Source of the DNA: a virus
Direction: 5' to 3' (one strand)
IMG/VR virus record: IMGVR_UViG_3300014838_000019
Span: 11,837-75,836 of that record
DNA: 64,000 nucleotides
The translations under genes were made by a program, and so were the position numbers. The notes beneath the pieces were generated by a model. That model had not been told where the DNA came from and made no database searches. It worked only from the letters and a program-made list of their open reading frames with translations. Below are positions 8,816-61,676 of the stretch, one piece after another. The stretch's first letter is position 1, and each line of letters starts with the position of its first letter.

Positions 8816-9705
8816 AAAAAAACAAAAAAGTTACACGTAAGTCCCGGTCCACTTCTAATCGTTCCAAAGTTAAACCCGCCATCCTAAGACAAAGAAAGAA
8901 GGCGGTATCCGTTCCTGTCGTAACCATTACGTCTCCGATTATAGAGAAAGCCAAGCTTCCTCGTAAACGTCGAACCAAGAACGTTACCCGGATGTATTTC
9001 ACCCAAGATACCGAAGATGCTATTGTGCTCTACAATAACACCACCGACCTCGCTGTGCGTGAACAAATCTTCCGTGACAGAATCCTTCACCCCTTTCAGA
9101 AACTTGTTGAGAACGTGTTTAACACGTTCAAGTTCTCTTATTTTGAGACTGGTCCGTTAGATGTTCAAAAGGAATGTTTGACGCATCTTGTTGCCAATAT
9201 GCACAAATTCGATCCTACTCGCACTAGTCGTAATGATCCAACCAAGAAGACTCGGGCATTTGCCTACTTTTCTATAATCGCCAAGCATTATCTCATTCTT
9301 TTGAATAACACCAATTATAAGAAATTCAATCAGAATGTCGAAATAAGTGATGAGAGGGAAGACAATACCATTCAACTTCAACAAGATGATAAATATTACG
9401 CTCAACAGGAATTGAACGATTTCATCAAGCTTATCATTGATTTCTGGGAAAAGAACGTTTCTAAGATATTCAATAAACAACGGGACTTGAATATTGCGAA
9501 TGCAGTCATTGAGCTATTTCGTAGTTCCGACCGCATTGACGCCTTTAATAAAAAAGCCCTCTATTTGTATATTCGTGAAATTGCTTTATGTAAGACCCAA
9601 CAGATTACTAAGGTTATTAATCGAATGAAACAGTATCAGGATACCATTCAAAAGTCCTATATGGAAAATGGAAGCATCAATGCTGACCGTTATTCCGTAT
9701 CCTAA
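8812..9705 (+). CDS. phage late sigma factor (T4 gp55-like)
   Basis: YFT..EDAI..YN and KFDP...AFAYFSIIA sigma region-2 motif as in gp55 (NPFAYFT). Confidence 0.75.
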   Translation: MKKNKKVTRKSRSTSNRSKVKPAILRQRKKAVSVPVVTITSPIIEKAKLPRKRRTKNVTRMYFTQDTEDAIVLYNNTTDLAVREQIFRDRILHPFQKLVENVFNTFKFSYFETGPLDVQKECLTHLVANMHKFDPTRTSRNDPTKKTRAFAYFSIIAKHYLILLNNTNYKKFNQNVEISDEREDNTIQLQQDDKYYAQQELNDFIKLIIDFWEKNVSKIFNKQRDLNIANAVIELFRSSDRIDAFNKKALYLYIREIALCKTQQITKVINRMKQYQDTIQKSYMENGSINADRYSVS

Positions 9706-11722: not shown

Positions 11723-12244
11723 ATGGCGGACACAGATTTATCTTCTTTTGGATTAACTAGTTCAGACAATGCGGTTTATGATCCAAACGCTCAACATCCA
11801 TCATTGGAAAGTACCGAGGGTGTTTCCACCCCAAACCCAAATTATAACCCCCCAAAATTGCCAGTTACTCCATCGACAGTAAATATAACTACTGGGAATG
11901 GAGTTCCAGGTGGGTTTGATTGTTCCAGCATAAAATCTCCAACGTCCGCCACAACGAATGCGTCATTGGCTATTTCGGCAATAATGGCTGAAGCATCCGC
12001 AGTTACCGCTGTAATTTCAGCAATCAAGGCGGGGTTAATTCCATCAGTTCCTGGAATAATGGGGGCATCCAGTAAATTAGCGGCACTGCAAACAAAAGCA
12101 GCCAACAAACTGAACGCAGCCAAATCAGCGCCGGACTTCTCGAAAAGTTATATATTACCCTCTCCACCTACAATACCGGCTGTTCCAAATTTTGCAAGTG
12201 CAGGAATACCCACACTACCTAAACTCCCATCGGTGAGTTTGTAG
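11723..12244 (+). CDS. Pro/Ala-rich hypothetical virion protein
   Basis: ORF within the baseplate operon. Confidence 0.55.
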   Translation: MADTDLSSFGLTSSDNAVYDPNAQHPSLESTEGVSTPNPNYNPPKLPVTPSTVNITTGNGVPGGFDCSSIKSPTSATTNASLAISAIMAEASAVTAVISAIKAGLIPSVPGIMGASSKLAALQTKAANKLNAAKSAPDFSKSYILPSPPTIPAVPNFASAGIPTLPKLPSVSL

Positions 12245-39018: not shown

Positions 39019-39972
39019 ATGCTTTTACAATCAGAACTCGTAGCTCTATTTGACCAATTGCTCGGTCAAAAGGCTCGACTCCGAAAAAATGGAGTTCAGG
39101 CAACATACCATTGCCCGTTCTGCGTTGATAAAAATCTTGCTACAAACAAGTTGGAAATAGCCGTCGGGGGTCCGAGAATCGGAAACTATCACTGTTGGCG
39201 TTGTGATTTTCGAGGAAGATCATTTGGCAGTCTCCTTTATAAACTCAAAGCCCCACAAAACTATCGGGACGCCATCGTTAAACTTACGGGCGATATTCGG
39301 ATGGTTAATTCCCATCAAGATATAGAATCAACGTATGTGTGTCTTCCACCCGAGTTTCATCCAATGCATAAGCCTAAAAAGACTCCGGAATATAAGAATG
39401 CAATGGTGTATTTGAAACGCCGTGGTATTACACGAGAAGACATTCTTCGTTACAACATTGGATATTGCGAATCGGGGGAATATGAAAATCATGTCATCAT
39501 TCCATCGTATGATGCCAAGGGTGATTTGAACTTTTTCATTGGGCGACGTTATTACGCAGCCGACCCCGGACTCCCCCATAAGAAACCGGAAACACCAATG
39601 AATGAGATTATCGGGTTTGAATCATTTATCAACTGGAATGAACCTCCGATTTTAGTTGAAGGTGCATTTAACGCAATCACAATTCGGCGAAATGCCATTC
39701 CACTGTTCGGAAAGTTTCCATCCAAAAAACTATATGAAACTATGCTTGAAAATCACGTTGAAAAAGTGTATATCTGCTTGGATTCAGATGCCGAACCAGA
39801 TGCAATATCCATATGTAAGCGATTGCTTCGACTCGGGATAGTGCCATATATTGTAAAACTAATTGGCGGAAAAGATGCTAATGAAATTGGATTTCATAAT
39901 TCGTGGCAATGCATTCGGTCAGCAGTCGAAATAGACAGCACCGAATTATTGAAATATAAATTGAAAATATGA
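39019..39972 (+). CDS. DNA primase (zinc finger plus TOPRIM)
   Basis: CPFC..HCWRC, YL..RGI, IIP, VEG.F, CLDSD, KDANE. Confidence 0.9.
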   Translation: MLLQSELVALFDQLLGQKARLRKNGVQATYHCPFCVDKNLATNKLEIAVGGPRIGNYHCWRCDFRGRSFGSLLYKLKAPQNYRDAIVKLTGDIRMVNSHQDIESTYVCLPPEFHPMHKPKKTPEYKNAMVYLKRRGITREDILRYNIGYCESGEYENHVIIPSYDAKGDLNFFIGRRYYAADPGLPHKKPETPMNEIIGFESFINWNEPPILVEGAFNAITIRRNAIPLFGKFPSKKLYETMLENHVEKVYICLDSDAEPDAISICKRLLRLGIVPYIVKLIGGKDANEIGFHNSWQCIRSAVEIDSTELLKYKLKI

Positions 39973-42900
39973 ATGTATTAAAAACAAATCTTAACAAAGT
40001 AACTCATATAATTCACATCGCTGATATTCATGTGAGATTAAATAAAAGAATGGATGAATATAAAGAAGTATTTAAGAAGTTATACTCAGAGGTTAAATCT
40101 TCACCCGAATCATCCGTCGTGGTGATGGTGGGAGATACATGCCACAGCAAAAACGAATTGAGTCCAGAGTGCGTTCAGTTAATATCCGAATTATTTACGA
40201 ATATCGCCAACATCAGACCTCTTATTCTCGTGGCAGGAAATCACGATGCTATATTATCTAATAAAACTCGTTTGGATAGCCTCACACCTATTGTGGATGC
40301 ATTAAACCACCCCAATCTACATTACCTCAAGACAACGGGATTATATGGATTCGGAAACATCCTATTTAACAACATGTGTATATTTGATGAACCCGATAAA
40401 TACATCCTCGGCAAAGATATTCCCGCAATATATCGTAATCAATATGACCATATTATCGCATTGTTTCATGGTGCCGTTGATAGAGCATCATTAGATACTG
40501 GATATGCCATTAGCAATCCGTCAATAATGCTTCCATTGTTTGATAATCATCACGCAGCATTGCTTGGCGACATACATAAAATGCAGGATATGCAGGACTA
40601 TGACGGCAATAGAAACAAACCATGCGTTAGATATTGCGGCTCACTTTGCCAACAGAACCATGGGGAATCTCTTATGGGGCATGGTTATTCATTATGGGAT
40701 TTATCCGATTATTCTTATCAACACCACGAACTTCCAAATGAATATGGTTATTTCACCGTGGAAATCCACAATGGTAAATTGACTACTGATATTTCAAATT
40801 TACCCAAGTTTGTTAGACTTCGGGTCAAGTTTTACAATAGCATAGCATCAGAAGTAAAGCAGGTTGTCGCCGACATTAAAATGAAAGTGCAAGTCATAGA
40901 GACTGCATATTTTCGAATGGATCAAGACCAAGATAAGTCAAATGGCATTCCTCTTTGCAAAGATATTGTGCTATCTGATTTGACGAGTGTCGATTATCAA
41001 TCCAAACTGCTAACCGAATTTTTATCCAAAAAATTGGAAATCAATTCCCCGCAGAAAATCGAGGATATTTTAAAGATTAATAAGGATACAAACTCTATTA
41101 TTAAAAAGGATGACTTTACTCGCAACTTAAAGTGGAAACCTATCCGTTTCGAGTGGGACAATATGTTCACGTATGGTGAGGGAAACGTTATTGACTTCAC
41201 TCAAATGAATGGTGTCTATGGTATTTTTGGACCCAACGCATCGGGAAAATCGGCAATTCTATCATCCATGATATTCTGTCTGTTCGATAAGTTTGATCGT
41301 GGATATAAGGGATTGCACGTTTTGAATGTTCAAAAGCAATCGTTCCATTGTAAGTTTGAATTTGAAATATCCGGTGTGCGTTACTTCATTGAACGAGAAG
41401 GAAACACTACCCGCACGGGAAATGTCAAGGTCGATGTATTTTTTTGGAAGATGGTGAATGGAGTCAAGGAAGAACTCCACGGCAATGCCCGACGTAATAC
41501 CAATGACATCATTCGTGACTATATAGGAACGTATGAAGATTTCATTATTACTGCCGCATCTTTTCAGACTGCCAAAAACCTTACATCATTTATTGACATG
41601 GGTAATAGTGAACGCAAAGATTTACTCGTTCAGTATATTGGACTCAACGTATTTGACCGATTGCATGAGTCGGCTGGCGAACGAAGTAAGGAACTGACCA
41701 CCATTCTAAAAACACATAAGGATAAGAACTATCAGCTTGAAATTCAACAGAATGAGAGTGCGTTATCACACGCCAATGAATTGTTCACTGCCGCAGCCGG
41801 AGAAGCTGAGAGTTTAAAAAATCAAATCGCAGCCGTAAATGAACAAATTGTGCTTGAAACGGCAAATATAATCAAACTTGATACGAGCGTACCAACGGAT
41901 TTATCCGCATTGGAATCCCGTAAAAAAACATCCGAAGAAACATTAACGGCAAAACGAAAGGTAATTTCTGATGCCCGTGAAGTGTTAGGAGTTCAAGAAA
42001 AAATTCTTGCTGAAATCAATAAGAAAATTGAGGATATTGAGAAGTCGAAATTTGTCGAAGCTCATAAGACTTATAAGAATCTAACAGATTCAGTTACTTC
42101 CCTCAAGCAAAAAATTGACTTGAAGAAAGTTGAAATCAAGGGGAAACTTGAGAAAGTAGCTCGTTTAGATAAACACGAGTATGATCCTAACTGCAAGTTT
42201 TGTATAAATAACTCTTTCGTTAAGGATGCAACCAAAGCCAAGAAGGAACTTGTTGATGATAAGGTAGAAGCAAATGGAATGATGGAAACATTGGCGACTC
42301 TACGAAAGGATTTGGATGATGTTAAGTGGGTGGAACACACCTATGAGACCTACACTAAGTTGCTGACCGACCGTGGAACTTCCAAAGATACATGTGCTAC
42401 GGCAAGCAGAAACATCATTATTGCAACAAATGAACTGGAACGGTTGGATACTTCTGCAAAGGCGGTTGTTCAACAAATAGAAATCTATCACCGCAATGAA
42501 GTTGCCGTAGAACAGAATTCTAAGGTTCAAGCGAAGATTAATGCGTTTCGAGTGACTTTAACAAAACTCGATTCCATATTCCAAAAACAATATCAATCAC
42601 TGGTGGATATTTCTGGAAAGCGTGAAATGTTCAAGACAACTATTGCGAATGTGACTAAGACTCTTGCTGACGTGACGGCAATGGAAACGGAACTTGAAAA
42701 CTATCAACTCTATTTGCAGTCAGTAGGACGAGATGGATTGCCATTTCAAGTCATATGCAATACAGTCCCCGAGATTGAGAAAGAGGTAAATTCCATTCTA
42801 AGTCAAGTGGTTGATTATACCCTTCAGTTTGAAACGGATGGAAAGAACATCGTTCCTTACGTTGTCTATGAATTTGGACGTTGGCCTATCGAATTGACAT

Positions 42901-43172
42901 CCGGATATGAACGATTTGTTGCAAGCGTAGCTATCCGTGTTGCTCTGACCAACATCTCCAACTTGCCCAAGACGACGTTTCTTGCCCTCGATGAAGGCTT
43001 TGGAACATTGGACCCCGATAATCTCGCATCTATGTTCACACTCTTCTCTGTTCTCAAGAACAACTTTGACTTTGTGTTTGTAATCTCACACCTGGATGCA
43101 CTCAAGGATGCGGTAGACAAACGAATCGAGATCAAACGGGAGGGTAATTTCTCCCTCGTGAAATACGAATAA
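39969..43172 (+). CDS. fused Mre11/SbcD nuclease - Rad50/SbcC ATPase (gp47-gp46)
   Basis: DIH, GD, GNHD, GDIH phosphoesterase motifs; GPNASGKS Walker A, CKFC zinc hook, TSGYE signature, LDEGFG.LD, ISH. Confidence 0.92.
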   Translation: MNVLKTNLNKVTHIIHIADIHVRLNKRMDEYKEVFKKLYSEVKSSPESSVVVMVGDTCHSKNELSPECVQLISELFTNIANIRPLILVAGNHDAILSNKTRLDSLTPIVDALNHPNLHYLKTTGLYGFGNILFNNMCIFDEPDKYILGKDIPAIYRNQYDHIIALFHGAVDRASLDTGYAISNPSIMLPLFDNHHAALLGDIHKMQDMQDYDGNRNKPCVRYCGSLCQQNHGESLMGHGYSLWDLSDYSYQHHELPNEYGYFTVEIHNGKLTTDISNLPKFVRLRVKFYNSIASEVKQVVADIKMKVQVIETAYFRMDQDQDKSNGIPLCKDIVLSDLTSVDYQSKLLTEFLSKKLEINSPQKIEDILKINKDTNSIIKKDDFTRNLKWKPIRFEWDNMFTYGEGNVIDFTQMNGVYGIFGPNASGKSAILSSMIFCLFDKFDRGYKGLHVLNVQKQSFHCKFEFEISGVRYFIEREGNTTRTGNVKVDVFFWKMVNGVKEELHGNARRNTNDIIRDYIGTYEDFIITAASFQTAKNLTSFIDMGNSERKDLLVQYIGLNVFDRLHESAGERSKELTTILKTHKDKNYQLEIQQNESALSHANELFTAAAGEAESLKNQIAAVNEQIVLETANIIKLDTSVPTDLSALESRKKTSEETLTAKRKVISDAREVLGVQEKILAEINKKIEDIEKSKFVEAHKTYKNLTDSVTSLKQKIDLKKVEIKGKLEKVARLDKHEYDPNCKFCINNSFVKDATKAKKELVDDKVEANGMMETLATLRKDLDDVKWVEHTYETYTKLLTDRGTSKDTCATASRNIIIATNELERLDTSAKAVVQQIEIYHRNEVAVEQNSKVQAKINAFRVTLTKLDSIFQKQYQSLVDISGKREMFKTTIANVTKTLADVTAMETELENYQLYLQSVGRDGLPFQVICNTVPEIEKEVNSILSQVVDYTLQFETDGKNIVPYVVYEFGRWPIELTSGYERFVASVAIRVALTNISNLPKTTFLALDEGFGTLDPDNLASMFTLFSVLKNNFDFVFVISHLDALKDAVDKRIEIKREGNFSLVKYE

Positions 43173-45860: not shown

Positions 45861-46019
45861 ATGGACAACAAGTTATATCAGATCAAATACCGTCGCCACA
45901 AGGAGAAAAATGGGTGGCGATATTTTTCTACTATTGTCCCTCCTGATTGTTATTTGGAATTGAAGAAGTTTTATCTCCGGTGGAAAAGTGAGAATATAGA
46001 AAAGTGGAACAATAAATGA
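45861..46019 (+). CDS. small basic protein (52 aa)
   Basis: MDNKLYQIKYRRHKEKNGWRYF...; stop overlaps the next ATG (ATGA). Confidence 0.5.
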   Translation: MDNKLYQIKYRRHKEKNGWRYFSTIVPPDCYLELKKFYLRWKSENIEKWNNK

Positions 46020-46840
46020 AAACTGGAGTTTATAGAATACGAAATATAATAAATAACCATTGTTATATTGGAAGTTGTGCCCACAAAACGGGAATTAAAC
46101 ATAGATGGAGAACTCACGTTCATGGTCTAAAACATGGCAGACATCATTTTATCATATTACAACGAGCATGGAATAAATATGGAGAAACCAATTTTCAATT
46201 CGAAATATTAGAGACGTGTATTCCGTCCGAGTGTATTAATCGAGAACAATTTTATTTGGATACACTGACTCCGAAATATAATGTATTAAAAATTGCAGGG
46301 AGTTCATTGGGAAGAAAAATGTCGCCGGAACAATATGAAAAAAATAAAAATAGGTCATACGATTGGATGAAAGGCGATAAAAATTGGAATAAATCTCCAG
46401 AAAAACGAGAATTTTATAGACGGAGAATTAAAACGCAAAATTTACGACAATATCTTACGGCAGATTCGTTTCTAAAAATATCAAAGTTTCATAAGGGCCG
46501 TCCAAAATCGGAAATTCAAAAACAACGAATGTCAGAAGCAGCTATAGGAAAACCCAAAAGTAAGGAACATGTGGAAAAAATGAAAGCATGGGCAAAGGAA
46601 AATAATTCTGGAGAAAAGTCATATTTTCATACTCATAAATTTATCTTCCAAGGAAAAGACAATCCCGGATTTTCCGGGTATTACAAATTTAGGAATAGAA
46701 TTACAAATGAAGAAATTGTATGTGCCCAATTTGAGTTTGCTAATAAATTTAATTTTGATAGCGGACGAATATCTGCAATATGTTTAGGTAAACGGAAGTC
46801 TCATAAACAATGGATTTGTCTCGGAAAGGAAACTATTTAA
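46016..46840 (+). CDS. GIY-YIG homing endonuclease
   Basis: GVYRIRN..N..CYIGS, LQRAWNKYG, EQFYLD...YN...AGSSLG. Confidence 0.9.
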   Translation: MKTGVYRIRNIINNHCYIGSCAHKTGIKHRWRTHVHGLKHGRHHFIILQRAWNKYGETNFQFEILETCIPSECINREQFYLDTLTPKYNVLKIAGSSLGRKMSPEQYEKNKNRSYDWMKGDKNWNKSPEKREFYRRRIKTQNLRQYLTADSFLKISKFHKGRPKSEIQKQRMSEAAIGKPKSKEHVEKMKAWAKENNSGEKSYFHTHKFIFQGKDNPGFSGYYKFRNRITNEEIVCAQFEFANKFNFDSGRISAICLGKRKSHKQWICLGKETI

Positions 46841-49212: not shown

Positions 49213-51333
49213 ATGCCAAGTTCAAACCAAATACCGCCGACCAAGCCATTTGAGGACGAAATACTCGACGTAAAGAAGCAATCGCTATATGCGAGGCTAA
49301 AACGATTGTTCTCAACTGACGTTATTGTCCGCAACGTTGGTGGTAAACAACTCAAGATAAAAGACACCGATAGCATAATGTATGCTACGGATCGTAACAG
49401 TCTGAGAGACCGCTTCAACCGCATTCGTTCTTCGGGTTATAACGCTTATACTCGTGATTTTGCACTGTCCTATCAAGCTGCTCGCATGGACCTCTTTCGT
49501 GATTACGATACGATGGACATGGACCCAATTTTATCTTCTGCCCTTGACATTTATGCCGATGAATGTTTGACGTATAACGAAGTGGGTAAGATGATTACGG
49601 TTCATTCTACGAATAACAACGTCAAACGTATTCTTGAAAACCTATTTGACGAAGTTCTAAACGTCCGTTTCAATTTGTGGTCGTGGGTAAGAAACATGGT
49701 TAAGTATGGAGATTTCTATCTTAAACTCTATGTCACTCCCGAATACGGTATTTACATGGTTGAGCCAATATCAGCCTATAACGTAGAACGTATTGAAAAC
49801 TCCGATCCCTCCAATAAACGCTACGTTAAGTTCCAACTTCGTCCAACCGATACATCTCAAGCTGAAATCCTTGAAAATTACGAAGTGGCTCACTTCCGTC
49901 TAATTTCCGATTCTAACTTCTTACCTTACGGCAAAGCAATGATTGAAGGTGCTCGCCGTGTTTGGAAACAACTATCTCTGATGGAAGACGCCATGCTTAT
50001 CAGCCGTATCATGCGTGCTCCTGAACGTCGTATTTTCTATACTGATATTGGAAACATCCCACCAAACGAAGTGGATGCTTACATGCAGAAGATGATGGAC
50101 AAAATGAAGAAGGTTCCATACGTCGATGAGCAAACGGGTGAATATAACCTTCGATTTAATTTACAGAACATGATTGAGGATTATTATATCCCCGTTCGTG
50201 GTGGTGATAGCGGAACTAAGATCGACACTTTGGCGGGTATGGAGTGGACGGGTATTGACGATCTTGAATACGTCAAGAACAAGATGATGGCTGCTCTGAA
50301 GATTCCAAAGGCATTCCTTGGATATGAAGAGGGCATTTCCGGTAAAGCTACACTGGCATCCGAAGACGTTCGTTTTGCACGCACCATTCAGCGTTTACAA
50401 CGCATTATTTGTTCTGAACTTAGCAAGATTGCTATTGTTCACTTGTATGCCCAAGGTTATCGTGATGAATCCTTAGTTGACTTCGAAATCGAACTTACCA
50501 ATCCATCTACCATTTTCGAAAAGGAAAAGATAGAAATTTGGCAAGATAAGATTGGTGTTGCAATTGACATGGTGGAAAATAAATTCTTCTCATTCAATTG
50601 GGTTTACAAAACCATATTTAACATGTCTGAAGATGACATTCGTGATGTTAAAGATGAAGTTGTTGATGATGCCAAACAGAAATATCGTCTCAATAAGATT
50701 GAGGAGGATGGTGATGATCCAGCGAAGCCGTTTAAAAAAATTGGTGGTGGAAAAGGTGATGATGGTGATGACGAAGGTGGTCTTGGAGACATCGGCGGTG
50801 GTGGAGGAGGGCATGGGGGCGGCGGAGGTGGAATGGGAGGAGATTTGCCTGACTTAGATGACCTTGGAGGAGATGAGGGGGAAGGAAAAGATGGAGAAAA
50901 GGGAGATGAGGGAGATGAGGAAGACAATGATAAGGGTGAAAAAGAAGAAGCTCCCGACATGAAAAAGATCAAAGAAGTCGTGGATGTTAAAGACACCCGT
51001 GATCGAAGCGACCGTGACCAAAGCGACCGTGACCAGACAGGAGAGAAAGTAGCTCCGGCAATAGCCGAAGACCCAATTGGTCGGTTAGAACGTTCAGCAA
51101 CCCAAAAGAAAAAGAGTGAAGGAAAACCTAAGAGTGCGCTTACTCATAACTTTGAGGGCGGAAGCCCATTGGTTCTGAAAGAAAGATCAGTTCCATATGT
51201 TGATACGGGTATGGTGAAGAGTCTTTCGGAGTTCCTAAAAAAGACTCAACCTGAAACTAAACAAGAACTTTTAAGTGAGAATCAAAAGAGCGGAAGTAAG
51301 TCCATGATGGATGTTTCCAACATTTTAGAATAA
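49213..51333 (+). CDS. portal protein (gp20-like) with Gly/acidic tail
   Basis: QL.LMEDAMLI.RI.RAPERRIFY.DIGN, EDYYIPVRG, LKIPKAFL, DVRFARTI.RLQ. Confidence 0.96.
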   Translation: MPSSNQIPPTKPFEDEILDVKKQSLYARLKRLFSTDVIVRNVGGKQLKIKDTDSIMYATDRNSLRDRFNRIRSSGYNAYTRDFALSYQAARMDLFRDYDTMDMDPILSSALDIYADECLTYNEVGKMITVHSTNNNVKRILENLFDEVLNVRFNLWSWVRNMVKYGDFYLKLYVTPEYGIYMVEPISAYNVERIENSDPSNKRYVKFQLRPTDTSQAEILENYEVAHFRLISDSNFLPYGKAMIEGARRVWKQLSLMEDAMLISRIMRAPERRIFYTDIGNIPPNEVDAYMQKMMDKMKKVPYVDEQTGEYNLRFNLQNMIEDYYIPVRGGDSGTKIDTLAGMEWTGIDDLEYVKNKMMAALKIPKAFLGYEEGISGKATLASEDVRFARTIQRLQRIICSELSKIAIVHLYAQGYRDESLVDFEIELTNPSTIFEKEKIEIWQDKIGVAIDMVENKFFSFNWVYKTIFNMSEDDIRDVKDEVVDDAKQKYRLNKIEEDGDDPAKPFKKIGGGKGDDGDDEGGLGDIGGGGGGHGGGGGGMGGDLPDLDDLGGDEGEGKDGEKGDEGDEEDNDKGEKEEAPDMKKIKEVVDVKDTRDRSDRDQSDRDQTGEKVAPAIAEDPIGRLERSATQKKKSEGKPKSALTHNFEGGSPLVLKERSVPYVDTGMVKSLSEFLKKTQPETKQELLSENQKSGSKSMMDVSNILE

Positions 51334-55531: not shown

Positions 55532-57217
55532 ATGTCAAGTATGAATAATTTAATTGGATGGATAAAGAATAATTTACAATATTCTCGTGGATTAATTTGT
55601 AAAAAATGTAAATTAGCGTGGTTCGAAAAATATGATTACTTGGATATGTGGCAACAAATACATGAGGTCACATCTTTTTTAGATATATTAAATCCTACAT
55701 TTCCACAAAGAGTGTGGCATATTATTAATGATAAAAAATTAGTTAAATGTGCCAATCCAACTTGCCAAAATTCTCCCAACTTCTGGTCATTCAATGAAGG
55801 ATATTTACGAACATGCTCCCCCGTATGTGCTCAATATGATCCGCTCACCCAAGAAAAAATAAATATCACTAACCTGGAAAAATATGGATATAAATATGGA
55901 TTGCAAAATGAGGATATAATCAAAAAAAGAATATTCACCATCCAAGAAAAATATGGCGTCGAAAATATTTCTCAGGTCGCAGGAATATCTGATAAAAAGC
56001 AAGAAACATGTTTAAAAAATTATGGAACAAAATGGTTCTTGGAAAGAACAGATATTGTTAAGAAATGTTTAATGGAGAAATATGGGGTTGGTAATGTTCA
56101 ACAAGTAAGTGAAATATCAAATAGAACATCTCAGACAAGAACTGATAAATTTTATGATGATTTGGTAAAATCTGATAGATTTAAAGGAAAGGTTGTTCCT
56201 ATGTTTACAAAAGATGAGTATGTAGGAGTAGGGTCTGAATATAAGTTTAAATGTTCATCTTGTTTTACAGAATTCTCCTATGTTTTACGATGGGATAGAA
56301 TACCCCGATGCCCCATTTGTTTCAAAGGTTCATCTGTATTTGAAACAGAGGTGACGGAGTATATAAAATCTCTATTGTCGGGGGATGTAATATTGGAAAA
56401 TACAAAGTCCATTTTATCAAACAATTTTGAATTGGATATCTACATCCCATCTAAAAAGATAGCGGTTGAATGTAATGGATTGTTTTGGCATGGAGAGGTT
56501 GGTGGTAATAAAGGACGAAAATATCATCTAAATAAAACAATCGAGTGTGAATCTAAAGGTATAAGACTCATTCATATATTTGAAGATGAGTGGATATTAT
56601 CATCTGACATAGTTAAAAATAGATTATCTCATATGCTGGGATTACATACTAAATCCATTTATGCCAGAGATTGTGAAATTAAAGAAACATCTGTGCAAGA
56701 CAAAAATATTTTTTTAGATGCGAATCATATACAAGGGAGTGACCGCAGTAAAATACGGATTGGGTTATTTCATAAAGATATGATGGTAGCAATTATGACA
56801 TTTGGAAGTAAGAGAATATTTACAAATTCTACCAACATTGTAGATGAATATGAACTTATAAGATATGCTACATCTACACCAGTCGTTGGTGGTGCGGGAA
56901 AATTAATAGCACATTTTATAAAAACATATTCTCCAAAGAAGATTATTTCATATGCTGATAGAAGATGGACATATTATAAAAATAATCTATATGAAAAAAT
57001 TGGATTTCAAAAAGTATCCGATGGCACCCCAAATTATTGGTATTTTGGTCGATATGGCAATTATAGAAGATTCCATCGGTTTGGATTTGCCAAACATACT
57101 TTACCAAAAAAGTTAATATTGTTTGACCCTAGCCTGTCCGAATGGGAAAATATGAAAAATAATGGATGGGATAGAATATGGGATTGCGGTAGTTTGAAGT
57201 ATGAAATGACATTTTGA
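55532..57217 (+). CDS. Hef-like homing endonuclease
   Basis: EKYG repeats; ELDIYIP...AVECNG.FWH, IHIFEDEW, ISYAD.RW, IWDCG. Confidence 0.8.
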   Translation: MSSMNNLIGWIKNNLQYSRGLICKKCKLAWFEKYDYLDMWQQIHEVTSFLDILNPTFPQRVWHIINDKKLVKCANPTCQNSPNFWSFNEGYLRTCSPVCAQYDPLTQEKINITNLEKYGYKYGLQNEDIIKKRIFTIQEKYGVENISQVAGISDKKQETCLKNYGTKWFLERTDIVKKCLMEKYGVGNVQQVSEISNRTSQTRTDKFYDDLVKSDRFKGKVVPMFTKDEYVGVGSEYKFKCSSCFTEFSYVLRWDRIPRCPICFKGSSVFETEVTEYIKSLLSGDVILENTKSILSNNFELDIYIPSKKIAVECNGLFWHGEVGGNKGRKYHLNKTIECESKGIRLIHIFEDEWILSSDIVKNRLSHMLGLHTKSIYARDCEIKETSVQDKNIFLDANHIQGSDRSKIRIGLFHKDMMVAIMTFGSKRIFTNSTNIVDEYELIRYATSTPVVGGAGKLIAHFIKTYSPKKIISYADRRWTYYKNNLYEKIGFQKVSDGTPNYWYFGRYGNYRRFHRFGFAKHTLPKKLILFDPSLSEWENMKNNGWDRIWDCGSLKYEMTF

Positions 57218-57625: not shown

Positions 57626-58825
57626 ATGGACTCCCACTCATTCTTGAAACAATGTATATCCGAAGTTATTGTTGAACCTATCAACGAACGAAAGCTTCGT
57701 TGTTCTGTTTGTGGAGGACATGCCAAAGGAAAACAATGGTGGAATCAAGATAAGGGCTATGGTATATGCAGTCAATGCGCTTCTAAAATGAAGGCTGACG
57801 GAAAAGAAGATATTAACCAATCGTATGGAAAAGAAGGGACGCATTATTTTCTAAAAGAAATTTCCGTGAATGAAGAGGCACAGCCTGAACCGTATAATGA
57901 TGATGAAACGGATACATTTTCTCCCGGTCCAAGGGATCGTGTAGAACCATCTAAAAAGTCGAAAGAAGATTCGACGAAATCAGATTATTCCAAGTCTAAA
58001 AAGAAAAAGGCAATGGAAAAATTTGTGAAGGAATGCCTCTCAGAAGTTATCATTGAACCTCTCAAGCCGAAGGCTACTAACTTGGTAAAAGAATGTATCC
58101 TCGAAGTTTTGAAAGATCGTTTGACCGAAGGAGGATACGATCCACAATCTCAAGCGGGACCAAATTCTCCGTGCGAAAACCCATACCCGGGTTGGAACAG
58201 TAAAATGGCAAAGATGGAGGAGGACACATCAGATGCAGATTTTTCAGAACCTCAAACGTGGAAATGTAAAGGGCAACGGGTTCAAGTTACATTTTTTAAA
58301 AATGGAAAAAATGAAACTCAGTTTGGAGTAATAAAAGAACCTCAAATAAATCAAGCCATTATTAAACCCGATATGGGGTATAATACAATCGTCGTTCCGT
58401 GGAAATATATTAAACCATTAATAAACGCCCAATTTGGAGTGAATGAATCAGACCCGCACGGACGCTATGCTCAAGATGCGGGAGCGGGTCAATTTGATCC
58501 ACGCACTTTTGGTGTTAATGAGGAGAGTTCACAATCCAAAGAGATTCAATGGACATGTCCTCATTGCAAAAAGCCGACTCAAGTCCAAATCGAAATAGCT
58601 TCTCCATCTGATTATATCGCTTGTTCAGATTGCGTTAACTGTGGGAAAGAAATAAAAGACCCAAAATTGGATCAAGAAGTTTACAAAATGGTCATAGGTC
58701 ATTTTGCTGGAAATAAAGAAATTAAGGTAAATGAGGCTGGCGGAACTTGGGGAGAAATAGAAAAAGACAATAAGAGCGATAAGCCTCTACCAAATAAAAC
58801 TACATATCCTTCACGTTGGAATTAA
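57626..58825 (+). CDS. modular hypothetical protein with repeated K(Q/E)C(I/L)xEV motifs and zinc ribbons
   Basis: LKQCISEVIVEP / VKECLSEVIIEP / VKECILEV; CxxC pairs. Confidence 0.65.
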   Translation: MDSHSFLKQCISEVIVEPINERKLRCSVCGGHAKGKQWWNQDKGYGICSQCASKMKADGKEDINQSYGKEGTHYFLKEISVNEEAQPEPYNDDETDTFSPGPRDRVEPSKKSKEDSTKSDYSKSKKKKAMEKFVKECLSEVIIEPLKPKATNLVKECILEVLKDRLTEGGYDPQSQAGPNSPCENPYPGWNSKMAKMEEDTSDADFSEPQTWKCKGQRVQVTFFKNGKNETQFGVIKEPQINQAIIKPDMGYNTIVVPWKYIKPLINAQFGVNESDPHGRYAQDAGAGQFDPRTFGVNEESSQSKEIQWTCPHCKKPTQVQIEIASPSDYIACSDCVNCGKEIKDPKLDQEVYKMVIGHFAGNKEIKVNEAGGTWGEIEKDNKSDKPLPNKTTYPSRWN

Positions 58826-58982
58826 AATAAGTTGCTTCTTCTAGTTTTTGTTGCTATACTCCCTCAAGTATTATGCAACAGAAAAAATCATCATTAACCC
58901 CGACACAAACAAATGTTGTCGGGTTTTGTGCGTTTATTACCGATGGATGGTGAGTTGATTGAAACAAAATAGACTACAAATT

Positions 58983-59372
58983 ATGAATACAAACGAATCC
59001 GAGGGTATAACTCCAGAATTTAAACAAGAGTGTGAGAATCACTATAATCAAATGAATGATAACACTGAAGTTGATGACGAAAATAAAAAATTGAAGTTCG
59101 TCCGCATGTCCATGCCCGCCGAGCATATGGACTTCATAATGAACTATTACAAGTTGCCCAATATGGTTGAAGTAAATCGGGTATCAATCTACATTTTGAA
59201 GACCCTTGCTCATATGGAACAGGACGGATATAAATTCGCCGTGTTTAAGACCGAAAAGAATGCTGAAGGTAAGGATGTAATAACTTCCGAGGGCAGTATT
59301 GGGTTATCCATTACGGATATGGTGAACACTCTTATGAAGCATATGAATGACGGACTTCCTCCCAAAAAATGA
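58983..59372 (+). CDS. hypothetical protein
   Basis: ORF downstream of a TTGCTT-17-TATACT promoter. Confidence 0.6.
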   Translation: MNTNESEGITPEFKQECENHYNQMNDNTEVDDENKKLKFVRMSMPAEHMDFIMNYYKLPNMVEVNRVSIYILKTLAHMEQDGYKFAVFKTEKNAEGKDVITSEGSIGLSITDMVNTLMKHMNDGLPPKK

Positions 59373-59593
59373 AAAGACGTGGCTTTCTCAAACATTTAAT
59401 GGTAATTGCTGGTGCGGTGTGCTTACCGACCACAATACTGAATTATGACCCAGTAAAACGAGTCATTGTTAATAAACCAACGCCCGATGTATCCATGCTG
59501 ACTGGGTATAAAGGAGATCGGGTTCTGGAAGTTGGATATGTTTACGGCCCATATATTCCTATATTTAGGACTCCCAATTTACAGAAAATATGA
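59369..59593 (+). CDS. twin-arginine-signal mini-protein carrying a gp23-like motif
   Basis: MKRRGFLK plus hydrophobic stretch; GYKG-x6-G-x2-YGPYIP; ATGA overlaps on both sides. Confidence 0.7.
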   Translation: MKRRGFLKHLMVIAGAVCLPTTILNYDPVKRVIVNKPTPDVSMLTGYKGDRVLEVGYVYGPYIPIFRTPNLQKI

Positions 59594-60171
59594 AACAACC
59601 CTTCGACATAACCATACCAAAAGTTGACCCAAATGAGAGAAACCTTTTCCTATGCAAAGATGTCAATCAAGAATCAATTGAAGAACTCACTAAGGGCATA
59701 ATAAAAATAAACGAAGAAGATGATCAATATCAGAAAATCTATGATTTTCATGGGTTTCCCTATATTCGTCAGCCAATTCATATTTTCTTGGATACCTACG
59801 GTGGGATGGTATATCAAACGTTTGGACTCGTATCTATCATGGATAATAGTAAGACTCCCATTCATACCGTCGTAACTGGATGTGCAATGAGTGCTGGGTT
59901 TGTTATTTTAGTGTGTGGTCACAAACGATTTGCTCATGCTTTTTCTACTCCGTTATATCATCAAGCCTCGGGAGGAGTGTGGGGTAAAGTCAAGGATATG
60001 GATGAGAAGGTAATTGAATCCAAACGCCTTCAGAAAATGATGGAAGACATCGTTGTGAAGCGCACCAAAATTCCCAGAACTAAACTTGCCGAAATTTACA
60101 CAACCAAGACTGATTGGTATATGTCTTCAAAAGAAGCTAAAAAGCTTGGAGTTGTGGACGTTATTATTTGA
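59590..60171 (+). CDS. clpP: ClpP-like serine protease
   Basis: DTYGG, G.AMSAG (Ser), YHQ (His), DWYMS..EA..LG.VD. Confidence 0.88.
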   Translation: MKQPFDITIPKVDPNERNLFLCKDVNQESIEELTKGIIKINEEDDQYQKIYDFHGFPYIRQPIHIFLDTYGGMVYQTFGLVSIMDNSKTPIHTVVTGCAMSAGFVILVCGHKRFAHAFSTPLYHQASGGVWGKVKDMDEKVIESKRLQKMMEDIVVKRTKIPRTKLAEIYTTKTDWYMSSKEAKKLGVVDVII

Positions 60172-60210: not shown

Positions 60211-60408
60211 ATGAAGAAGAATGATCGCCTGAGACATGATGCAAATCGCACGATGGAAAAGATTCGTAGGATTGCTCGACACATTCGAAATGTAGAGGAT
60301 AATTGCCTCTTGCTTGGCGAAAAGCTGATTGAACGTGGAGAAATTGAACTTGGACGACAATTAATTGCTGGTGCGGGTTTTTGGGATTATCAGTATAAAC
60401 GAATATAA
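60211..60408 (+). CDS. short hypothetical protein, possibly truncated
   Basis: Follows a TTGACT-16-TATACT promoter; RHIRNV helix then an abrupt end. Confidence 0.45.
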   Translation: MKKNDRLRHDANRTMEKIRRIARHIRNVEDNCLLLGEKLIERGEIELGRQLIAGAGFWDYQYKRI

Positions 60409-60821: not shown

Positions 60822-61676
60822 ATGAATAACTTAGTATCCTGTCCAATATGTCAGTCGAAATTCAGATCGTTGATGTCACATATTCGACTGATTCATGGGT
60901 TAACTCCAACTGAATTACTTGAAAAATACCCTAATACAAAGATGGTGTCGGATAGGGTGAAGAAAAAAGCATCCCATTCGTGTGTTCGGGCGTGCTGCGG
61001 GAGAACTCCGGGGTTTATTGTATCCGAGGAACAAAAACTAAAAATCTCCCATTCTGTCACGGGAGAAAAAAATCCATTTTATGGAAAACGGCATTCCAAA
61101 AAAACACAGCTGAAAATGTCCCGTAATCATGCCGATTTTCAGGGAGTCAATAATCCACTTGTAAAATGGCTAAATAGTGACCCAAAAAATAGGACTGCGT
61201 ATTCAGATGGGATGAAACGATGGATGGCGGAAAAATGGTCCAACGAAGAATATAGGAAAAAACACAGCGAACGCCTTTCACGACAGGTCTCACAACAACA
61301 CATAAATGGATTCAATCCATATTCTAACTGTGAACATGGGTGGTTTCATAGTAGCAAATTTGCAACAAAATTTTATTTTCAAAGTTCGTATGAACGGCGA
61401 TTTTTAGAATTTTGCGAAAAATCACAAAAAATAAGTTCTTTACAACGAGTTCCATTCGTGATACCATACCAAGACGATAAGGGAATCAGTAGAAATTATT
61501 GTGCTGATTTTCTTATCAATGGAAATATTGTGGTTGAAATTAAACCGCAATCCATGATGAACTATAATAACAATTCTCGAAAAATTATTGCAGGAAAATC
61601 ATATTGTGAAGCGAATGGGCATGAATATAAACTCATTACAGAGACGGAACTAAACAACCTCGAAAACATATTATGA
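60822..61676 (+). CDS. homing endonuclease (C2H2 finger, NUMOD3, TnsA-like nuclease)
   Basis: CPIC..H...H; GEKNPFYGKRHS; SSYE..F....IPY......Y.ADF.....VEIKP. Confidence 0.8.
   Translation: MNNLVSCPICQSKFRSLMSHIRLIHGLTPTELLEKYPNTKMVSDRVKKKASHSCVRACCGRTPGFIVSEEQKLKISHSVTGEKNPFYGKRHSKKTQLKMSRNHADFQGVNNPLVKWLNSDPKNRTAYSDGMKRWMAEKWSNEEYRKKHSERLSRQVSQQHINGFNPYSNCEHGWFHSSKFATKFYFQSSYERRFLEFCEKSQKISSLQRVPFVIPYQDDKGISRNYCADFLINGNIVVEIKPQSMMNYNNNSRKIIAGKSYCEANGHEYKLITETELNNLENIL

Follow-up and report, generated by a model that had tools for sequence, protein, structure and literature searches.

A Small Gene of Large Uncultured T4-Like Phages Joins a Tat-Type Leader to a Segment of the Major Capsid Protein

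The window analyzed here, 64,000 nucleotides (nt) of the IMG/VR virus record IMGVR_UViG_3300014838_000019 (positions 11,837 to 75,836), represents the last 64 kb of a 75.8-kb contig that was judged 21% complete. At 59369..59593 on its + strand, the listing of open reading frames (ORFs) contains a mini-gene whose product of 74 amino acids (aa) joins a leader of the twin-arginine translocation (Tat) type to a segment of the major capsid protein. Very probably, it is a genuine small gene under selection in a large, uncultured T4-like phage from peat, with a product composed of the Tat-type leader and a capsid-strand passenger of about 50 residues. The two-part architecture is new and widespread, as at least 80 homologous clusters share it, and no description of leader-tagged capsid fragments was found in the literature. 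The mini-gene represents a clear case of a structural gene fragment made into a new small protein, and its relatives add an unannotated family to phage genome annotation.

The first-pass annotation had described a translationally coupled ORF of 74 aa, which is present as described, with ATGA overlaps on both sides: the start ATG shares ATGA with the TGA of the upstream ORF (58959..59372), while the TGA of the mini-gene shares ATGA with the ATG of a ClpP-like gene (59590..60171). The RRxFLK twin-arginine motif and the hydrophobic stretch named there were found as K-R-R-G-F-L-K at residues 2–8, followed by 18 uncharged residues. All parts of the product are encoded on the + strand. The n-region with the twin-arginine motif MKRRGFLK (residues 1–8, 59369..59392) precedes the uncharged, hydrophobic h-region (residues 9–26, 59393..59446), which is formed by the 18-residue run HLMVIAGAVCLPTTILNY. 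The subsequent linker (residues 27–45, DPVKRVIVNKPTPDVSMLT, 59447..59503) lacks conservation across the whole family; YDPVK is kept in the subfamily of the window, and tblastn alignments of the mini-protein to capsid proteins of Listeria and Bacillus phages begin at residues 19–24. The capsid-derived core (residues 46–65, GYKGDRVLEVGYVYGPYIPI, 59504..59563) corresponds to T4 gp23 437–456. Finally, the tail (residues 66–74, FRTPNLQKI, 59564..59590) contains T68-P69, which align with T457-P458 at the start of the P loop of T4 gp23. The string TGYKGDRVLEVGYVYGPYIP, previously given as the end of the protein, does occupy residues 45–64, but ten further residues (IFRTPNLQKI) come after it. AlphaFold2, run on the family alignment, gave a confident N-terminal helix (residues 3–18) and a passenger that is mostly coil at low confidence, with a mean predicted local distance difference test score (pLDDT) of 69. 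The passenger copies one strand-turn-strand segment of the T4-type major capsid protein and has no predicted fold of its own. PHROGs and NCBIfam contain no model for the mini-protein of the window, solved structures searched by sequence gave no meaningful match to it, and the ESM Atlas delivered sub-threshold leads to Tat-signal proteins only.

The motif spacing formerly claimed for T4 gp23 could be reproduced. In gp23 (NC_000866) the motif reads G437-Y-K-G440, x6, G447, x2, Y450-A-P-Y453, and the mini-protein shows G46-Y-K-G49, x6, G56, x2, Y59-G-P-Y62 with identical spacing. A match to the Pfam Gp23 profile (PF07068), called for as a check on this claim, was obtained for residues 31–66 at profile positions 291–326 of 376 (E = 0.0017), while its score of 18.3 bits lies below the Pfam gathering cut-off of 24.4 bits and the match covers a small part of the profile. 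All 42 aligned family members match the same profile, the best of them with E = 2.7e-7. When the 74 residues were compared to 50,697 phage records by tblastn, most of the listed best matches fell inside annotated major capsid genes, among them those of phages of Flavobacterium, Microcystis, Listeria, Bacillus, Streptococcus, Escherichia and others. The hidden Markov model (HMM) of the family aligned to T4 gp23 430–457 and to the equivalent region in the capsid proteins of two relatives, placing P64 of the mini-protein on A455 of T4 gp23. Comparison of 85 minis with 68 capsid proteins revealed an almost equal conservation of the 20-residue core G-[YF]-K-G-x-x-F-L-E-[TA]-G-x-[VI]-Y-A-P-Y-I-P-L, whereas its flanks are conserved in the capsid proteins and relaxed in the minis. 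The equivalent of T68 is a threonine in 68% and that of P69 a proline in 19% of the 85 mini cores. Judged from these alignments, the capsid resemblance is real homology, and the mini-protein is a fragment homologue of Gp23 and not a capsid protein. If compared to T4 gp23 and its vertex paralogue gp24, the core is homologous, the spacing identical and the conservation pattern the same. In contrast, the mini-protein keeps only about 20–50 of some 500 residues and has no HK97 fold, while the Tat-type leader replaces everything upstream of the copied segment.

The family was delineated with a three-sequence profile, built from the mini-protein and its two closest homologues, that was searched against 1.84 billion representative proteins and gave 187 matches at E ≤ 0.001. 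Among the 150 representatives listed, each standing for one 50%-identity cluster, 80 have a length of 67–136 aa and the same two parts: an RRxF close to the N-terminus, which 67 of the 80 have at position 3, and a YAPYIP-type motif 40–65 residues further. The search also gave full-length capsid proteins of 450–600 residues, matched 30–80 residues from the C-terminus, and two long repeat proteins (P0045, P0056), which were dismissed as spurious. Within the 42 aligned members R3, R4, F6 and P61 are invariant, while M1, G49, G56, Y59, Y62 and P64 are conserved to at least 90%. Consequently, the proposed combination of a twin-arginine leader with a gp23 fragment was borne out and extends to at least 80 clusters, in which both parts are kept and no neutral decay of the motif is seen. 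All members that were looked up are metagenomic and carry either no product name or the label 'hypothetical protein'.

One might suspect a relic, i.e., a leftover piece of a capsid gene that stems from rearrangement or homing-endonuclease traffic and is open and RR-starting by chance. The region is indeed rich in homing endonuclease genes (55532-57217, 60822-61676) and contains a truncated DUF5662 gene (60211-60408). However, the ORF has remained intact and of similar length in at least 80 diverged clusters, R3, R4, F6 and P61 do not vary, and the ATGA coupling is tight on both sides. Furthermore, the mini of relative G002 shares only 5 of 13 codons with the capsid gene of the same phage at identical residues. 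This points to selection on the protein encoded by the mini rather than to recent gene conversion, and such synonymous divergence at conserved protein sequence argues against a relic. The conservation throughout the family thus effectively refutes this explanation, which we regard as highly improbable. In G004, 10 of 11 codons at identical residues are the same in the mini and the phage's own capsid gene, which codon bias or a recent exchange between the two genes may explain. We also considered the mini as a piece of a split or intron-interrupted capsid gene and rejected this: when all six frames of the 75.8-kb contig were searched for Gp23, the mini-gene was the only, short match, the full capsid gene being located past the contig end, and in G002 the capsid gene is intact (564 aa) 6.5 kb downstream of the mini.

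The leader of the family follows the consensus [N/K]-R-R-x-F-[L/F]-[K/R]. Both the Tat consensus (S/T)-R-R-x-F-L-K and an h-region of about 12–20 uncharged residues are found in the mini-protein. Family-wide, the median length of the uncharged run after the RR motif is 16 residues, with L making up 18%, A 17%, V 13% and G 11% of it. In 53 of 77 members, a K or R is the first charged residue past this run. The Tat-signal models TIGR01409 and PF10518 were matched by 14 and 10 of 42 members, with best E-values of 3.2e-4 and 3.8e-4, respectively. The minis resemble bacterial Tat signals in their RRxFLK consensus, in a Gly/Ala-rich and moderately hydrophobic h-region and in the basic residue that often comes after it. 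They differ from them in an extremely short n-region, with RR starting at residue 3 in 67 of 80, and in the passenger, a short peptide without predicted fold or cofactor domain. In six phage contigs of together about 250 kb, the only real ORFs with such a leader are capsid-fragment minis. A phage-encoded TatA was not found in five contigs.

These features are compatible with an envelope-directed function, in which the capsid sequence would merely be a convenient source of a strand. Either the exported peptide would act in the periplasm, through superinfection exclusion, manipulation of envelope stress or signaling, or an aggregation-prone passenger would jam the Tat translocon and block host Tat substrates. 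The Tat consensus is strictly kept at the extreme N-terminus, and the h- and c-regions are Tat-like rather than long membrane anchors. Small residues at -3/-1 near the end of the h-region occur in about half of the members (37 of 77) and A-x-A in 19 of 76. With a median of 56 residues and a grand average of hydropathy of -0.2, the passenger is a short, mildly hydrophilic peptide, and the Tat system has been reported to accept unstructured peptides of this class. Nevertheless, this explanation in either version seems unlikely to us: it leaves unexplained why the passenger shows capsid-like conservation residue by residue and why different members carry different, yet always the most conserved, capsid segments, and no periplasmic target is known for a capsid strand.

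That different segments are used became evident from sister genes. In two lineages, immediately upstream of a C-type mini, which carries the C-terminal strand, N-type genes are located at 1973-2188 of L085/L086 (L085 on the - strand) and at 8899-9162 (+) of L091. They encode the same kind of leader, followed by the N-terminal capsid signature ...VQPM..P.G..FYMD, and the L091 N-type protein matches Pfam Gp23 at profile positions 3–49 with E = 2.2e-10 and 40.9 bits, above the cut-off. Five more N-type clusters were found (P0155–P0159). Compared in sequence with T4 gp23, the stretch falls at about residues 93–122, which we take to be the Gol region; the match to Gol is confined to the N-type sisters, while the mini-protein of the window aligns to gp23 430–457 outside of it. 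According to a review, Gol is the most conserved part of gp23, binds EF-Tu and activates the Lit protease (PMC3014915). In Lit exclusion, mediated by Gol and EF-Tu with Lit from prophage e14, a short linear capsid stretch acts alone, as it would in the minis, and the N-type sisters copy this very region, whereas the mini-protein of the window carries the C-terminal strand instead. Furthermore, Gol is a trigger inside the full capsid protein, while the minis are separate leader-tagged gene products. A Lit-like partner was not encountered, with no search aimed at one.

Other arrangements exist as well. By eye, the L009 mini comprises a C-type core and then an N-type-like motif in one protein, and P0024, P0026 and P0030 contain an extra copy of the strand that precedes the spine helix. 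To judge from these sequences, the family is modular, with one leader and different invariant capsid segments, i.e., the C-terminal strand, the N-terminal Gol region or both. In L085 the leaders of the tandem N-type and C-type genes are nearly identical, which suggests passenger swapping by recombination. An origin of the leader from the RRxF of the Gol region was considered and discarded: a Gol HMM from 14 distinct capsid sequences scored real mini N-termini with at most 3.4 bits and shuffles with up to 9.9. Pattern scans of IMG/VR for N-type and MKRR-type minis found nothing, nor did the first locus scans with N-terminal patterns.

Some neighbors of relatives' minis were seen besides. A 59-aa ORF right after the L091 mini (9415-9594, +) has a weak YSPYIP motif and no twin-arginine leader. 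In L094 a protein of 263 aa with a textbook Tat-type leader (MNRRNFLKMLGISAMSMPLLAKA; 368-1159, -) adjoins a capsid-fragment mini and weakly resembles the N-terminal ATPase part of the T4-type large terminase (E = 0.05). L095 holds a partial copy of this leader-tagged protein (2-652, +), for which the terminase match reaches E = 0.0045. A word-index search gave no relatives of the terminase-like protein, which therefore stays an isolated case.

The mini-gene is an accessory gene of uncultured phages. Two family members searched by tblastn against the 50,697 GenBank phage records gave no match that covered at least 80% of the query, and in Flavobacterium phage immuto and Microcystis phage Mel-JY01, the isolates closest to it, matches were confined to the capsid genes, with no mini-gene shown. 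When 185,579 prokaryote genomes were scanned with a DNA pattern of the family, none matched. Of the 80 best capsid-related loci taken from IMG/VR, just 3 carry the mini-gene. The carrying phages have genomes of about 170–360 kb as estimated from CheckV completeness, while all carrying contigs are fragments. Near-identical DNA occurs in permafrost and peat metagenomes from many studies, and the identical 74-aa protein is also encoded on a 194-kb contig. In the syntenic relatives L005/L006, L088/L092, L090 and L093 the gene order is protease, core-like protein, often GMP reductase, and then the mini. In a lineage comprising L009, L085/86, L091, L094 and L095, minis are located among replication genes.

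As to function, we lean, tentatively and with considerable reserve, toward a Tat- or membrane-directed mimic that would compete for host factors recognizing invariant capsid segments. We favor such a decoy, which the first-pass annotation had already proposed for capsid sensors, because the family displays capsid segments which the phage cannot mutate, one of them (Gol) being a proven immune trigger. In addition, the accessory distribution and the varying neighborhoods, i.e., the head-gene cluster in the window and the replication cluster in L009, L085 and L091, favor an interaction with the host over a role in core morphogenesis. The mini-peptide would be made in the cytoplasm, where, as a linear mimic of an immutable capsid segment, it might compete for host factors that recognize such segments in nascent or unassembled capsid protein. 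Such factors could be immune proteins that sense the capsid, like Lit, CapRel or Avs7, or their co-factor EF-Tu. The leader would direct the peptide to the TatBC receptor of the host at the inner membrane, where it would be exported or held, and a bound host factor might be sequestered or removed there. Bacterial immunity is known to read conserved structural proteins of phages, namely through Lit with Gol and EF-Tu, through CapRel, and through the immune receptors Avs7, Avs8, Avs10 and Dsr1, which sense major capsid proteins, Avs7 together with EF-Tu (PMC3014915; PMC13581612). The family touches the open question of how phages protect patterns they cannot mutate, and invariant capsid segments shown behind an export leader by a conserved family provide a handle that can be transplanted to model systems. 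The proposed logic, a small phage product acting as imitation, is shared with phage mimics used against host defense, such as the DNA mimic Ocr and the antitoxin RNA pseudo-ToxI. However, we know of no phage mimic that is modeled on the capsid protein of the phage itself or equipped with an export leader, and the anti-defense role of the mini-protein is only a hypothesis.

A broader version is a rather doubtful extrapolation: large T4-like phages might keep a modular toolkit of leader-tagged invariant head-protein segments as immune decoys, comprising the capsid P-domain strand, the Gol region and perhaps pieces of terminase and portal. The Tat leader would then drag captured receptors or EF-Tu to the translocon, where they would be sequestered or expelled. 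If true, this would be a counter-defense principle that has not been described so far.

Several points weigh against the decoy. The mini-protein of the window itself does not match TIGR01409 or PF10518 at E ≤ 1, and its uncharged run ends at D27 without an A-x-A cleavage site. Engagement of Tat, localization, binding partner and effect on immunity are all inferred, and the decoy presupposes a host that has both a Tat system and capsid sensors. A copy of a trigger segment could moreover activate a sensor instead of blocking it. A 199-nt contig of a peat metatranscriptome library, identical to 59401-59599 and thus to most of the mini ORF, would speak for transcription of the gene, but is a weak hint only, since it may be contaminating DNA. 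Finally, minis and capsid proteins are conserved in nearly the same way, as could likewise be expected if the peptide docked onto the capsid protein itself and thus had a role in assembly.

The latter idea leads to a capsid-assembly modulator. Through its leader, either bound to TatBC or serving as signal anchor, the peptide would be kept at the inner membrane, and its strand and P loop would dock onto capsid subunits or capsomer edges. In possible variants of this scheme, proheads would be tethered or, as the first-pass annotation had proposed, nucleated at the membrane, free edges would be capped against aberrant polymerization, or the geometry of very large capsids would be tuned. The position of the copied strand speaks for such a role. 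It lies within the P-domain sheet of gp23, includes A455, the gp31-bypass site, and continues into the P loop. There, the mutations T457A, R460C and G461S, which affect capsid length, are placed close to the quasi-threefold axes at which P loops of adjacent capsomers meet (PMC9546572). Likewise, A94 and G97, where further length mutants map, and M98, which contacts the portal, belong to the region of gp23 copied by the N-type sisters (PMC9546572). T4 proheads assemble on the inner membrane (PMC9958956), the 20-residue core follows the same pattern of conservation as the capsid protein, the gene is located just after the prohead protease and a core-like protein in the window and its syntenic relatives, and all carrying contigs are fragments of phages estimated at 170–360 kb. 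In contrast, the distribution is sporadic and accessory, as no mini-gene is seen in immuto, in Mel-JY01 or in 77 of the 80 best IMG/VR capsid-related loci, and in another lineage the mini is found among replication genes. Furthermore, the N-terminal RR leads us to expect a topology that places the capsid-like part outside the cytoplasm. On balance, we consider assembly modulation, including its variants, a serious but rather improbable alternative to the decoy. If the role was morphogenetic after all, the minis would reveal that very large capsids are built with a step linked to the membrane.

The genomic setting is that of a T4-like head-gene cluster. The contig encodes a T4-type terminase, a portal that is about 50% identical to the portals of Flavobacterium phage immuto and Microcystis phage Mel-JY01, and a prohead protease (54828). 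The protease gene is followed by a homing endonuclease gene (55532-57217, +; phrog_3339, E = 3.6e-117), a 129-aa ORF (57233) and a gene for a 399-aa protein (57626-58825, +). The latter contains three LSEVIIEP-like repeats of the form (L/V)K(Q/E)C(I/L)SEVI(V/I)EP and a zinc-ribbon-like stretch at the C-terminus. ORFs of similar size with a similar N-terminal motif come after the prohead protease in relatives (L006 631-1803, L088 888-2024). The 399-aa protein is possibly a prohead core protein with protease sites. Upstream of the coupled unit of three genes to which the mini-gene belongs, a possible hairpin with a 7-bp stem and an 11-nt loop, followed by a T-rich run, was read from the sequence (58899..58935, +). 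It was not called in a terminator scan, and sigma-70 and terminator scans gave nothing usable. The first gene of the unit (58959..59372, +) encodes 137 aa from TTG, with an ATG at 58983, and has no family match. No counterpart was seen upstream of the minis of relatives, where a 136-aa ORF of L090 was compared by eye only.

Downstream, the coupled ClpP-like protease gene (59590..60171, +; Pfam CLP_protease, E = 3.6e-26), which is covered in another RNA library, is followed by a DUF5662 remnant of 65 aa (60211-60408, +). Over 53 residues, this remnant shares 81% identity with a 173-aa DUF5662 protein, of which it represents the first third. The full 173-aa protein is encoded downstream of the mini in relatives. 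Since the DUF5662 gene of the window is truncated in comparison to the intact gene there, the ClpP gene looks like a recent insertion into a rearranged spot. The suggestion that the mini-protein serves as an adaptor for the adjacent ClpP did not hold up: there is no ClpP beside the mini in L005/L006, L088/L092, L090 and L093, and the three loci retrieved through the ClpP homologue, L002–L004, are without mini. Further downstream are genes for a NUMOD3 and TnsA-like endonuclease (60822-61676, +), an RlaP-like nucleotidyltransferase (61673) and an ADP-ribosylglycohydrolase (62968). A third homing-endonuclease-like gene in or beside the head and packaging cluster encodes a GIY-YIG protein (46016-46840, +).

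The T4-type late promoter TATAAATA occurs 22 times in the window (e.g., 12280, 16192, 16770, 35476, 49154, 51381, 57222), with 6.5 occurrences expected, and none of these sites lies before the operon of the mini-gene. Many copies are intergenic and on the minus strand. They appear as TATTTATA on the + strand, where several of them precede a start codon by a few bases. Possibly, the motif marks the start of translation or transcription in this phage group.

Two larger proteins of the window deserve mention. The portal (49213-51333, +; 706 aa) is covered by the T4 portal profile at residues 92–481 and has a C-terminal extension of about 225 residues that the profile leaves unmatched. At 39969-43172 (+), a single ORF of 1067 aa comprises a calcineurin-like phosphoesterase and an ATPase of the Rad50/SbcC type. 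While T4 encodes gp47 and gp46 separately, this ORF looks like a fusion of the two equivalent subunits.

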